From IMG/VR virus record IMGVR_UViG_3300032167_002503: a stretch of DNA of 64,000 bases. One strand, 5' to 3'. Made by a program: the position numbers and the translations under genes. The notes under the pieces were generated by a model that saw only the letters and a program-made list of their open reading frames with translations, was not told where the DNA came from and made no database searches. Shown here one piece after another: positions 25,075 through 26,756 of the stretch (its first letter is position 1; each line of letters opens with the position of its first letter). The stretch comes from a virus.

Positions 25075-25821
25075 TTACTCTCCAAGCCGGTAAAGCCAAA
25101 AAGTTGGAATGAGTTTATATTTATGACGGCTTGCTATATGAAGCTTTTTAATCTTCTCACAGACGTCATTCGGCACTTTGTCCCAGTGCTCATTGATGTA
25201 GTCGTCAAGCTGTTCATAGGTGAAACCCAGCTTGTCTTCATCGCTTTGGCCACAAAGCCCATCAGACGGAGTTTTCAACACCAAGTCTTCCGGCAAGCCG
25301 ATCTCCAGACCGAGCTGCCGCACTTCCGTAACCGTTAATCCTCCCAAGGGAGAAAAGTCACCCGCAGCGTCTCCATATTTGGTACTGTAACCTACGAAAT
25401 CTTCGCTATAATTGCAGGTGTTACACACTCGACCGCCCTCGGGAAGATTCTGCGCAACAGCATACAAAACTGCCATGCGAATGCGAGCAGGAAGATTGAT
25501 TTCCATATCCGCGCGACCGGAAGGAGCCATGTTTTCAATGACTCGTTTCTTGAGGTCATAGACAGCATCACCGATGTTGATGGTGATGTAGTCAATGCCG
25601 AGATGCTCGCACAGTCGGATACTATCATCAATATCCTTTTGCTTGTCCTGCGGCATCAAAACACCGAGCACTCGCTCTTTGCCAAGAGCTTCCACACAAA
25701 GGGCGGCGCAAATAGAGCTGTCTTTGCCGCCGGAGATGCCGATAACTACCTTGGTATCTGGTCTTGCGTTATTGAAGAAGTAGTCCTTAATCCACAAGAC
25801 TACTCGCTTTGCGTTTCCCAT
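25075..25821 (-). CDS. nadE: NAD+ synthetase (NadE, ammonia-dependent)
   Basis: PP-loop SGGKDS motif at a NadE-like length. Confidence 0.65.
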   Translation of the reverse strand: MGNAKRVVLWIKDYFFNNARPDTKVVIGISGGKDSSICAALCVEALGKERVLGVLMPQDKQKDIDDSIRLCEHLGIDYITINIGDAVYDLKKRVIENMAPSGRADMEINLPARIRMAVLYAVAQNLPEGGRVCNTCNYSEDFVGYSTKYGDAAGDFSPLGGLTVTEVRQLGLEIGLPEDLVLKTPSDGLCGQSDEDKLGFTYEQLDDYINEHWDKVPNDVCEKIKKLHIASRHKYKLIPTFWLYRLGE

Positions 25822-25941
25822 GTTACTCCTCCTTGTTCAGACGCTGGCGAATGGTATCAATGCTCTCCTGATTATACATCTTGCCATTCTCAAACTTCTT
25901 AACCATGATGTTGTCGGGAAAGGTGAGAGACTCCTTGAGGG

Positions 25942-26184
25942 TCAGTCCATGCGGGCATGGGGCAGATATGGAACAACCAGCACAATGTCATCAGAATACT
26001 GGTCATAATGTCTCTTGATGCAAATGAGTGTAAACAGCTCAGCGTCATTCTCATAATCCCACTCAATCATGTGGATGGGCGTATCAGAGAGGTGCAACAT
26101 GAGCGTTCCATCAGGATAATGCCCCTGCTTAACCTCTACGATTGTAGAGGTATCATCGGGATTGAGAGTATGCAGTTTAAGCAT
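25942..26184 (-). CDS. ribose-phosphate pyrophosphokinase (Prs)-like N-terminal domain only: either a fragment or a frameshifted gene
   Basis: 80 aa ending VVPYLPHARMD, resembling the Prs N-domain (PYxxYARQD). The reading frame then stops. A second frame continues for about 40 codons to the NadE start. Confidence 0.35.
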   Translation of the reverse strand: MLKLHTLNPDDTSTIVEVKQGHYPDGTLMLHLSDTPIHMIEWDYENDAELFTLICIKRHYDQYSDDIVLVVPYLPHARMD

Positions 26185-26195
26185 ATGCTACCTCC

Positions 26196-26756
26196 TTAAA
26201 TTACATCAATCTGGCACATCTTCATGGTGGTCAGCGCAGCCTCATGAGAAGCAGGGTTTACGCCGGCGCACAGGCTGGCATCAACCACAATCTTAGCTTC
26301 GGGGAACCAGTTCTTTGCCATCAGAGCGTTGGAAACCACACAAATGTCGGTGCAAAGACCGCAGAATACGATTTCCACATCATCAATGTTCTCAATCATC
26401 ATGTCGAGCATTTCCATGAGGTCGATGGAGCCGAAAGTTGTTTTTTCGATAATGACAGGAGAGCCTCCAAAATCTTCGACCAGGCACTCGGGAATCTGCC
26501 ATCCCTCGGTATACTTCATGCAGTGCTTTACTGGAAGCTTCTTTCCCTCCGGAGTGGAGAGGTAATCCTCATAATGGGTATCCTTGGTGAAAACGAAATC
26601 AGTGTTTTCGCTCTCGTTTTTAATCATCTCTGCGACCTTGGGCAGAATGGCCTGAGCCTCAGGTGTACCGAGAGAGCCGTTGATGAAATCGTTCTGCATA
26701 TCTACAACCACGATAATTTTTTGCATAAATGATACAACCTTTCTCTTATACTCCAC
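26196..26756 (-). CDS. isochorismatase-family hydrolase (nicotinamidase PncA-like)
   Basis: VVVDMQNDF ... CGLCTDICV catalytic Asp/Cys motifs. Confidence 0.55.
   Translation of the reverse strand: MEYKRKVVSFMQKIIVVVDMQNDFINGSLGTPEAQAILPKVAEMIKNESENTDFVFTKDTHYEDYLSTPEGKKLPVKHCMKYTEGWQIPECLVEDFGGSPVIIEKTTFGSIDLMEMLDMMIENIDDVEIVFCGLCTDICVVSNALMAKNWFPEAKIVVDASLCAGVNPASHEAALTTMKMCQIDVI

Follow-up and report, generated by a model that had tools for sequence, protein, structure and literature searches.

The region between positions 25,075 and 26,756 of the window, the whole 64,000-nucleotide stretch of viral DNA that was analysed, very probably derives by deletion from a phage NAD cassette of four genes, pncA-like, adps-like, namat-like and nadE. 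Adps and Namat form the NARP1 pair (Osterman et al., bioRxiv 10.1101/2024.02.11.579819; Namat structures 9W5W/9W5X, PMC12774641; ICP1 Adps, PMC13586617): Adps is the ADPR-pyrophosphate synthetase and Namat the nicotinamide ADPR-transferase of this system, in which NAD+ is rebuilt from ADPR, nicotinamide and ATP. The pair is represented in the window by two fragments that are homologous to an Adps-like N-terminus and a Namat-like C-terminus, respectively. Relatives possess the intact architecture, the junction between the fragments is reproducible, and independent deletions of the pair are recurrent. A single deletion of at least ~2 kb would have removed ~190 codons from the Adps-like gene and ~455 from the Namat-like gene, so that codon 80 of the former is now followed, in the -1 frame, by codon ~455 of the latter. 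The TGA codon immediately past the junction would generate an 80-residue stub devoid of nearly all substrate-binding and catalytic residues, which is presumably functionless, and the 42-codon Namat-like tail is predicted to be untranslated.

Gene content of the locus

All genes of the region are located on the minus strand, as judged from the open reading frames and translations of the window, and the pncA-like gene and nadE are separated by 375 nt (Table 1).

Table 1. Genes, gene remnants and deletion junction of the region in window coordinates.
Feature	Position	Strand	Basis
PncA-like nicotinamidase/cysteine hydrolase gene, intact	26196..26726	-	PF00857, structure alignment
5' remnant of Adps-like (phage Prs-like) gene	25942..26184	-	80 codons and TGA made at the deletion junction
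Deletion junction	25944..25950	-	DNA alignment with L057; Namat-like homology begins there in the -1 frame
3' remnant of Namat-like (Nampt-family) gene	25823..25948	-	42 codons, GLTLKESLTFPDNIMVKKFENGKMYNQESIDTIRQRLNKEE and TAA
nadE, single-domain NAD+ synthetase, intact	25075..25821	-	PF02540, TIGR00552, PP-loop

The mechanical reading frame of the PncA-like protein spans 26196-26756 and reaches a GTG at 26756, but translation probably begins at the ATG at 26726, the start called on other contigs, which gives a product of 176 amino acids. The protein belongs to the isochorismatase superfamily, with a match to Pfam PF00857 (E 7.3e-23; 82 bits against a cut-off of 27), and its best match among solved structures was the pyrazinamidase/nicotinamidase of Pyrococcus horikoshii (1ILW/1IM5; E 8.7e-15). 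In the alignment with 1ILW the positions of the Asp-Lys-Cys triad and the Asp/His/His metal site (KDTH...KHC) are kept, and the motifs VVDMQNDF, KDTH...KHC, EKTT and GLCTDICV match counterparts in the archaeal enzyme. The score with the NCBIfam PncA equivalog NF008623 was 29.6 bits, below the cut-off of 174; the hydrolase is termed PncA-like here and nicotinamide is its putative substrate. Synonymous sites in pncA were saturated between the window and the relative L057, and yielded no dN/dS value. The NadE protein (248 amino acids) has the features of an NH3-dependent NAD+ synthetase: it contains the sequence GISGGKDSS with the PP-loop SGGKDS, and matched PF02540 (E 3.8e-55; 187 bits) and TIGR00552 (179 bits against a cut-off of 63.65). 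The initial annotation had correctly recognized both flanking genes.

The 80-codon open reading frame between these genes, which had been likened to the N-terminus of ribose-phosphate pyrophosphokinase (Prs), retains its own ribosome-binding site (AAGGAGGTAGCATATG) and ends in VVPYLPHARMD followed by TGA. The likeness was borne out by the PHROGs profile phrog_619 'ribose-phosphate pyrophosphokinase' (E 2.5e-8; profile positions 9-87 of 282) and by a profile built from 14 relatives (E 3.8e-13; positions 8-79 of 272), for which the stub was the sole significant match among 1808 six-frame segments of the window. The profile search that had been suggested for the fragment therefore gave significant similarity to phage Prs-like/Adps proteins, but the match to Pfam Pribosyltran_N alone was not significant (11.8 bits against a cut-off of 25; E 0.23). 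With this sub-threshold score and no C-terminal domain, the stub is not a canonical Prs. A Pfam LHH match to the 80-residue frame was rejected as chance, and PHROGs and custom profiles were needed for identification. Beyond the stop, tblastn did extend the Prs alignment without a change of frame, but the extension holds 6 identities over 31 positions, includes a gap and was rejected as noise.

The Adps of ICP1 consists of an N-terminal domain (residues 1-136) and a C-terminal domain (137-280), and His121, Asp161, Lys185 and Asp212/213/216 are named residues in this protein (PMC13586617). The stub aligns with ICP1 Adps up to the equivalent of Asp89 and is without six of the seven named residues, only Arg87 being present; a complete two-domain Adps that bears these residues was not found in this alignment. 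The comparison was made with the ICP1 genome record, as the PDB entries cited in PMC13586617 were absent among the PDB sequence matches. Thus, the suggestion that the cluster might be a variant of a working Adps-based system was not sustained.

The second frame of ~40 codons noted in the initial annotation is present, but it is not a continuation of Prs. This frame is open from 25987, overlaps the stub frame by 46 nt in the -1 register and terminates at a TAA (25823-25825) one base ahead of the nadE ATG. The 42 codons of the remnant correspond instead to the 3' end of a Namat/Nampt-like gene: they matched phrog_448 'nicotinamide phosphoribosyl transferase' (positions 461-496 of 500; E 0.0022) and a profile of 42 Namat-like relatives (positions 456-498 of 500; E 1.5e-5), for which the tail was the top match among the 1808 segments. 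The best single matches were proteins of the L068/L076 type (E 1.3e-6). Namat is a Nampt-fold enzyme with a catalytic His and an SCH signature, GSXfXfXfTRD (PMC12774641). A full-length Namat with these elements was not found in the region, the surviving piece lying out of frame downstream of the stop. The last codons of the tail (AAGGAGGAG, 25826-25834) act as the nadE ribosome-binding site, and the tail probably persists because this site lies within it.

The intact cassette in related phages

The order pncA-like, Adps-like (~275 amino acids), Namat-like (~495 amino acids), nadE was found in ~150 related viral and metagenome loci. About 30 of the 48 loci that were retrieved with PncA contain pncA, a Prs-like gene of 275-290 codons, a Nampt-like gene of 490-505 codons and nadE, the pncA and nadE genes being about 2.35 kb apart. 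Moreover, among 80 loci chosen by Namat similarity alone, the four genes were present in every one that had enough flanking sequence. The cassette is intact in well over 100 phage contigs from gut, rumen and other sources, as well as in one contig of 149 kb from the bin of an Oscillospiraceae MAG. A metagenome scan with the L057 protein (P0001) detected 53 loci at no more than 66% amino acid identity and one 28-residue overlap at 89% (L218); nearly all of the 53 have a full-length Prs-like gene directly 3' of pncA. Homologous loci therefore possess an intact Adps-like gene where the window has the stub, and the description of the latter as the remnant of a decayed Prs-like gene was right.

In the intact Prs-like relatives, the positions equivalent to Arg87, His121, Asp161, Lys185 and Asp212/213 of ICP1 Adps are conserved, and the Asp216 position differs. 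These relatives fall under every NCBIfam Prs cut-off (TIGR01251: 96.5 against 113 bits). The next gene in the relatives upholds the link to phage Adps and NAD reconstitution that had been raised initially: the Namat-like protein of one locus (L011) scored 384 bits against SpbetaL1 Namat (9W5W/9W5X) and no more than 160 bits against Nampt. The L068 type bears the Namat signature GxYTYQYVTRD (PMC12774641), which reads GAYTYQYVTRD in the L068/L076 type, and other types have 9-13 residues inserted ahead of TRD.

Origin of the truncated genes

The DNA of the window and that of L057 agree through ATGGAC, after which the window reads TGACCCTCAAGG and L057 reads CGTGTGAAGAAC; the L057 protein, with 91% amino acid identity, runs on as ...ARMD-RVKNASDVFTLKYFCEIINSLN. 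The fragments probably were joined through a short ATGGAC microhomology. Searches of metagenomes, IMG/VR and GTDB returned no near-identical intact genome, so the right breakpoint and the microhomology derive from protein alignment only. The junction 34-mer was absent from IMG/VR and GTDB genomes, and the search of GenBank phages matched the DNA of the region to two unannotated gut phages, at a coverage of at most 18% and thus to nothing closely related. The identical 80-codon frame is present on at least 23 contigs, and the pncA-to-nadE region with the junction was 100% identical in all eight contigs that were checked from separate JGI and ENA assemblies. All junction-bearing contigs are one clone, which demonstrates reproducibility and not evolutionary persistence. 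Across the 80 codons, dN/dS between the window and L057 was 0.056 at a dS of 0.875, which suggests that the deletion is recent.

Two further deletions of the pair were found in one phage species in genomes about 99% identical to an intact genome. L079 lacks 3.4 kb of L076, to which it is otherwise 99.8% identical, and an imperfect repeat of 13 nt lies at its junction; L058 lacks 2.7 kb of L076 (99.4% identical). In L057 the Adps-like gene seems to be truncated at codon 103. Five truncated versions (the window, L057, L058, L059/L060 and L079) each keep ~76-103 N-terminal codons. A word-indexed protein search with the stub returned three proteins only, all of no more than 107 residues, a length bias that probably reflects ascertainment and is unusable as support for a breakpoint hot spot.

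The recurrence of these deletions, the intact state and catalytic motifs of both flanking genes in the window, and a locus (L025) in which nadE and a NadD-like gene come directly after pncA, without any remnant of the pair, would also accord with the PncA-like and NadE proteins as a true selected two-gene module, loss of the middle pair being adaptive streamlining or avoidance of a cost instead of neutral decay. This possibility is somewhat unlikely. It is compatible with the deletion scenario and does not exclude it, and the L079 deletion also destroys nadE so that loss is not always tidy.

It is improbable that selection has retained the stub since the deletion because it works as a small protein of its own, one that might poison or modulate host Prs or related hexamers as a subunit, or act as a decoy. 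The low dN/dS relative to the seemingly truncated L057 gene, the strong ribosome-binding site and the initial 76-103 codons kept by all five truncated versions, and the formation of the hexamer core of ICP1 Adps by N-terminal domains (PMC13586617) are consistent with such a role. However, the stub comprises only 80 of 136 residues of the N-terminal domain, making folding unlikely, and the truncated versions all end differently, whether at a stop, in 16-21 residues of junk sequence or by fusion in frame to NadE. Furthermore, the deleted genomes of the L076 species are still >99% identical to the intact one, which leaves too little time for an effect of selection, the three short search matches are subject to the bias noted above, and intact genes are the rule across the ~150 loci.

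A sequencing or assembly frameshift in a Prs-like gene that is intact in the real phage is discounted almost entirely: although the frame changes exactly at the stop codon, the pncA-nadE spacing of 375 nt compared with 2.3 kb or more in relatives indicates a deletion of at least ~2 kb through the Adps-like and Namat-like genes and is refutation in itself, the downstream frame matches Namat positions 456-498 and not Prs, the Prs frame beyond the stop is without real similarity, and the same junction recurs in eight contigs from separate assemblies. Equally negligible is a programmed -1 ribosomal frameshift that would give an Adps(N)-Namat(C) fusion of 120 residues with a novel role, as the 46-nt overlap of frames related by -1 contains no X XXY YYZ slippery heptamer, the product would be two non-domain pieces of unrelated enzymes, and junctions and frames differ in the other deletion variants.

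Taken alone, the deletion in the window represents ordinary gene decay, and automated annotation should avoid labelling it as a Prs gene or as a working anti-defence system. The recurrent independent deletions suggest that wild phage populations acquire and lose NAD-rebuilding genes rapidly, and the matched pairs of intact and deleted phages are offered for fitness tests.

Possible residual NAD metabolism and the ancestral cassette

In the window phage a NARP1-like core has been knocked out naturally: as the Adps-like and Namat-like genes are broken, NARP1-type reconstitution of NAD from ADPR would be lost, and by its gene content the locus cannot rebuild NAD+ from ADPR, nicotinamide and ATP. 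Nicotinamide released by host NADase defences could still be converted to nicotinic acid by the phage PncA-like enzyme, then to NaAD by host PncB and NadD, and to NAD+ by phage NadE. No second copy of Adps, Namat, PncB, NadD, NMNAT or Sir2 was found within the 64 kb; the phage genome may be longer than the window, and another NAD pathway may be encoded there.

The locus resembles NARP1 in the order of Adps-like and then Namat-like genes, in the homology of the stub to the N-terminal part of Adps as far as the conserved PxARxD motif, where Arg87 lies, and in the homology of the tail to the Namat C-terminus, the intact relatives matching SpbetaL1 Namat far above Nampt. It differs in that both genes are destroyed, the window keeping 80 of ~275 Adps-like and 42 of ~495 Namat-like codons. 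Moreover, the pair in relatives is bracketed by PncA-like and NadE genes, an arrangement not described in the NARP1 literature searched. Accessory enzymes that join the operon and feed or extend the pathway have precedents in NARP1-AP, which includes the Macro-domain ADPR-1''-phosphatase Adpp (bioRxiv 10.64898/2026.01.28.702374), and in an operon with the RyDEP glycosidase (bioRxiv 10.64898/2026.05.28.727677). In contrast with these, the nicotinamidase-like protein and NAD synthetase are on the pyridine side of the pathway and not on the ADPR side. The PncA-like and NadE proteins are also the first and last enzymes of phage Preiss-Handler salvage (PncA, PncB, NadD, NadE), but the window is without PncB and NadD and flux would need host enzymes. 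Class I Prs proteins have the fold family and a PYxxYARxD-type motif, which the initial annotation had recognized, in common with the Adps-like relatives, whereas the latter belong among the phage Prs-like proteins, as does ICP1 Adps.

A further difference from NARP1 concerns the nicotinamide-binding Asp215 of Namat, which hydrogen-bonds the amide of nicotinamide and is equivalent to Asp219 of human NAMPT. Characterised Namat and NAMPT enzymes have Asp at this position, as do SpbetaL1, Kirov, ICP1, phiSA12 and Sf13. Among the 127 Namat-like genes of related cassettes that were scored, 116 have Ala and 11 have Ser at the position; the corresponding region is deleted in the window. The scar in the window led to a widespread cassette of four genes, in which a nicotinamidase-like gene and nadE bracket NARP1-type enzymes with this Asp replaced. 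Tentatively, and with some doubt, the ancestral cassette is proposed to be a so far undescribed NARP1 variant of 'deamidated' type with nicotinic acid as an intermediate. The PncA-like enzyme would convert nicotinamide to nicotinic acid, the Adps-like enzyme would make ADPR-PP, the Namat-like enzyme, with Asp replaced by Ala or Ser as in nicotinate phosphoribosyltransferases, where GTSN stands at the apparently corresponding motif, would couple nicotinic acid and ADPR-PP to form NaAD, and NadE would amidate NaAD to NAD+. Conversion of nicotinic acid to NaAD by the middle pair is supported by sister cassettes (L003 and L017) in which the place of this pair between pncA and nadE is taken by PncB (TIGR01514, 407 bits) and an NMNAT, as in Preiss-Handler salvage. 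If the route through nicotinic acid is true, it would constitute a new branch in the NAD-centred arms race between phages and bacteria, and Asp versus Ala or Ser would provide a simple sequence rule for the annotation of Namat-like genes.

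Gene content of the pncA-nadE interval

Three-frame translation upheld the genes and frames of the initial annotation, with all relevant genes on the minus strand. The first gene in the 5' to 3' direction, for which the ATG at 26726 is the probable start of a 176-aa product as called on other contigs, is separated by an 11-nt spacer that includes AAGGAGG from an 80-codon ORF, and 120 nt lie between this ORF and nadE. A -1 frame, open from 25987, reads ...CPHGLTLKESLTFPDNIMVKKFENGKMYNQESIDTIRQRLNKEE and ends with TAA at 25825-25823, one base ahead of the nadE ATG. Profile matches assign the nadE product unambiguously to NadE (PF02540, 3.8e-55; TIGR00552, 179 bits, cut-off 63.65), and its PP-loop is SGGKDS. 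The upstream protein matches PF00857 at 7.3e-23, and its Asp/Lys/Cys triad positions and Asp-His-His metal site align with those of the best solved relative, the Pyrococcus horikoshii pyrazinamidase/nicotinamidase (1ILW/1IM5; E 8.7e-15). As it falls below the NCBIfam PncA equivalog threshold, it is termed PncA-like.

The Prs-like character ascribed earlier to the 80-codon ORF is borne out by the phage Prs-like/Adps family, but not by Pfam Pribosyltran_N (E 0.23, not significant). The ORF matches PHROG 619 'ribose-phosphate pyrophosphokinase' (E 2.5e-8, profile positions 9-87 of 282) and a profile of 14 full-length relatives (E 3.8e-13, positions 8-79 of 272), for which it is the sole significant match among 1808 six-frame segments of the window. 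The second frame of about 40 codons that had been noted is present, but is not Prs: it matches the C-terminus of PHROG 448 'nicotinamide phosphoribosyl transferase' (positions 461-496 of 500, E 0.0022) and, as the top match of the window, that of a profile of 42 relatives (positions 456-498 of 500, E 1.5e-5). The latter alignment starts exactly at the frame junction.

Features of the window and of related viral and metagenome loci (L handles)
Feature	Locus	Position	Strand	Remarks
PncA-like isochorismatase-family ORF	window	26196-26756	minus	first gene, 5' to 3'
80-codon ORF (Adps-like stub)	window	26184-25942	minus	MLKLHTLNPDD...VVPYLPHARMD, then TGA
nadE	window	25821-25075	minus	
89-aa ORF	window	26746-27015	minus	just upstream of pncA, ...REYVTKLKAELDTREHIPNKKESKAIRKARIKRGV
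RNA ligase	window	27107-28390		
P-loop AAA_33/KTI12-type kinase	window	23529-24038		
Metallophosphoesterases (three)	window	22963-23532, 24101-24823, 29848-30657		Pfam-supported
Metallophosphoesterase-resembling ORF	window	29128-29703		no Pfam match
RlaP-type nucleotidyltransferase	window	30654-31493		
SPFH/Band 7-flotillin protein	window	21410-22933	minus	507 aa; long Ala/Glu/Lys-rich coiled region
Deletion	L079	about 5167-5179		versus L076 5180-8606
Deletion	L058	1248-1251		versus L076 5208-7886
Adps-like truncation	L057	1057-1060		
Adps-like truncation	L059	about 2580		
Four-gene cassettes	L002-L032, L061-L167, L225	e.g. L011 8001-11662, L076 4413-8965		
Sister cassettes	L003, L017, L025, L042	6281-9345, 8022-11030, 7986-9998, 7992-10884		respectively

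Deletion of the Adps-like/Namat-like pair

A search of IMG/VR with the PncA-like protein recovered 48 loci. In ~30 of them a Prs-like gene (275-290 aa) and then a Nampt-like gene (490-505 aa) follow the pncA-like gene and precede nadE, and the pncA-to-nadE gap is ~2.35 kb, compared to 375 nt in the window. The N-terminal fragment recovered 27 further loci, whose Prs-like N-termini are 36-61% identical to it; the gene is full length where the contig permits, except in L079, which has a deletion, and in several cases additional genes (YqeY-like, Sir2-like, Thg1-like, NMNAT) separate the pair. Every locus with enough flank among 80 chosen by Namat similarity only has all four genes. In almost all of the 53 loci contributed by a metagenome scan, an intact Prs-like gene comes right behind pncA. 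Absence of any full-length Prs-like gene at this position in homologous phages would have counted against the initial annotation; most related loci possess one. These intact loci and the disparity in gap size therefore imply a loss of at least ~2 kb, made up of ~190 codons from the Prs-like gene, ~455 from the Nampt-like gene and anything between.

A sequencing or assembly artefact is excluded, as a one-base error cannot account for a 2-kb gap and the junction recurs in 8 contigs. These contigs (5 JGI and 3 ENA assemblies) match the window at 100% identity over the whole pncA-to-nadE region, the 91 nt around the junction among it. They represent one clone and are evidence of reproducibility, not of age; the identical 80-aa ORF occurs on at least 23 contigs. 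The frameshifted Prs-like gene considered previously is discounted because 2 kb are missing and the Prs frame beyond the stop has no real similarity; the 46-nt frame overlap contains no slippery heptamer.

Closest to the stub is P0001, a truncated Prs-like protein on contig L057 (91% aa identity). The DNA of L057 is co-linear with the window up to ...CCCGCATGGAC, past which L057 continues CGTGTGAAGAAC... (RVKNASDVFTLKYF...) and the window TGACCCTCAAGG.... At the junction the -1 frame of the window reads GGA CTG ACC (G-L-T), which aligns with (D/E)(G/E/N)LT of Namat-like relatives. If the ancestor had GAT GGA CTG at the Namat side, ATGGAC would have been common to both breakpoints. Because a near-identical intact genome was not found in the metagenome scan, IMG/VR or GTDB genomes, we infer this microhomology only conditionally on that ancestral sequence. 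Two deletions relative to the intact L076 offer a strong analogy. L079, otherwise 99.8% identical, has a clean 3.4-kb deletion at imperfect 13-nt repeats (ATATTC[CT]T[CT]ATGC) that created an in-frame fusion of codon 78 of the Prs-like gene to codon 111 of NadE. L058, otherwise 99.4% identical, has a 2.7-kb deletion with a 4-nt overlap that joined the Prs-like gene just past ...RVQELE to the Namat-like C-terminal part at approximately profile position 365 of 491. These are different deletions within one species, >99% identical to the intact genome; thus, microhomology-mediated loss of the pair is demonstrably frequent. In itself, the window feature is unremarkable gene decay in a system of known kind: the remnant envisaged initially, produced by a multi-kilobase deletion fusing two genes.

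Across the 80 codons, the window and L057 differ with dS 0.875 and dN 0.049. The resulting dN/dS of 0.056 indicates strong purifying selection across almost all of their divergence, which on the simplest reading would reflect recent deletion from a functional gene. The same ratio might be taken to mean that the stub itself is functional and kept by selection, as might the breaks of five truncated Adps-like versions (the window and, as independent truncations in other phages, L057, L058, L059/L060 and L079), which all fall within codons 76-103: L057 stops at codon 103 (INSLNK*), relatives such as L218 going on INSLNFRKVWVMDAHS..., and P0003, the L059/L060 protein, breaks after ARMDRV. However, three of the five came from one search with only three candidates, each of at most 107 residues, and selection for the stub is considered very improbable; the clustering may reflect a hot spot, stub selection or such ascertainment.

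In L059 (2646-2834) and L060 (335-838) the broken Adps-like gene directly abuts a fragment of ptsI (PEP-protein phosphotransferase) of bacterial type, which lies on the opposite strand and meets it with its 3' end. The two contigs come from different samples, and the arrangement could mark the boundary of a prophage with its host, host DNA captured by the phage, or a chimera. Insertions as well as deletions have a hot spot in the cassette operon: in several relatives, L061 (5863-8523), L062 (5807-7204), L063 (5829-7856) and L078/L087, the pair is split by 1.4-3.2 kb of additional genes (GatB/YqeY-like, Sir2-family, Thg1-like, NMNAT, HNH-like protein).

Lost and predicted residual functions

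The Namat-like protein of the intact locus L011 matches the SpbetaL1 Namat structures 9W5W/9W5X (PMC12774641) with 384 bits (E 9e-114), compared to at most 160 bits for bacterial and human Nampt. The Namat signature GSXfXfXfTRD is GAYTYQYVTRD in L068/L076-type relatives, the type nearest to the tail in the window; other types have an insertion ahead of TRD. The Prs-like relatives fall in a large phage family together with ICP1 Adps, a Vibrio phage enzyme of known structure, and keep the residues aligned with its Arg87, His121, Asp161, Lys185 and Asp212/213. On these similarities the lost pair is assigned as NARP1-like. Judged from the alignment, the stub cannot be an active enzyme because it ends at the Asp89 equivalent, keeps only Arg87 among the named residues and covers 80 residues of an N-terminal domain that has 136. 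With Namat reduced to its tail, ADPR-based NAD reconstitution is predicted to be lost, which speaks against the initial suggestion that a variant Adps-based system operates here.

PncA-like and NadE are intact, and the nadE ribosome-binding site sits inside the retained Namat tail, plausibly the reason that the deletion stopped there. PncB, NadD/NMNAT, Sir2, a second Adps and a second Namat are absent from the 64-kb window; any contribution would therefore need host PncB and NadD. Nicotinic acid formed from nicotinamide by phage PncA would be turned into NaAD by these two host enzymes, and phage NadE would then yield NAD+. Locus L025, in which pncA is followed directly by nadE and then a NadD-like gene, is an example from elsewhere of a module lacking Adps and Namat.

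The window genome is that of a large dsDNA phage (primase, DnaB, DNA ligase, topoisomerase II, endolysin, PhoH). RNA ligase, P-loop kinase, metallophosphoesterase and RlaP-type nucleotidyltransferase genes adjoin the NAD genes, an apparent RNA-repair or nucleotide-processing neighbourhood (22963-24823 and 27107-31493). The phosphatases lately tied to NARP1 operons against aRES defence are Macro-domain enzymes, a different family from these metallophosphoesterases. A 509-aa plus-strand ORF (21443-22972) is a spurious antisense product of the low-complexity sequence of the SPFH protein.

The intact cassette and a proposed nicotinic-acid route

The most interesting result concerns the intact cassettes rather than the decay in the window. 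The pncA-like/adps-like/namat-like/nadE cassette is conserved and widespread in IMG/VR and metagenome contigs. Asp215 of SpbetaL1 Namat hydrogen-bonds the nicotinamide amide (PMC12774641), and the equivalent Asp219 of human NAMPT sets substrate specificity according to PMC7096376, which cites Khan et al. (2006). Every Namat-like gene scored in PncA/NadE-bracketed cassettes has Ala (116 loci) or Ser (11 loci) instead, in motifs such as SFLNTATV, SFDRTATI and SF(D/N)KTSTI, although these 127 loci are interrelated (35-100% identity, at least three sub-types) and not independent events. A D219S mutant of human NAMPT reportedly accepts nicotinic acid. In contrast, Asp is kept within G(T/S)D(T/S) in a small control set of five classical NARP1 phages (SpbetaL1, Bacillus phage Kirov, ICP1, Staphylococcus phage phiSA12, Shigella phage Sf13), and neither PncA nor NadE occurs within 6 kb in the four GenBank phages checked.

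In sister cassettes L003 and L017 the pncA/nadE slot holds PncB (TIGR01514, 407 bits) and an NMNAT/NadD-type adenylyltransferase, enzymes that turn nicotinic acid into NaAD; the middle of L042 holds PncB only. The PncB-like proteins have GTSN at the apparently corresponding motif. Together the sister cassettes, including L025, are predicted phage-encoded Preiss-Handler pathways. The Ala/Ser residue and the PncB/NMNAT cassettes suggest that the middle pair makes NaAD: Adps-like and Namat-like proteins would combine nicotinic acid and ADPR-PP, and NadE would complete the pathway. The sequences thus suggest a NARP1 variant that proceeds via nicotinic acid and NaAD. The papers covered on NARP1, NARP1-AP, RyDEP, NARP3 and Namat/Adps structures make no mention of nicotinamidase, NadE or a nicotinic-acid route. 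The ancestral four-gene form is apparently a NARP1 variant that had not been described.

The single match in GTDB species genomes, L225 (CALWOP010000177.1, 149 kb), has an intact Ala-type cassette and is binned with an uncultured Oscillospiraceae MAG, a weak hint of the host group or a mis-binned phage contig. The 89-aa ORF has a homolog in L063 (7611-7856) immediately upstream of the Namat-like gene, and its predicted product is a small conserved basic protein travelling with these cassettes.
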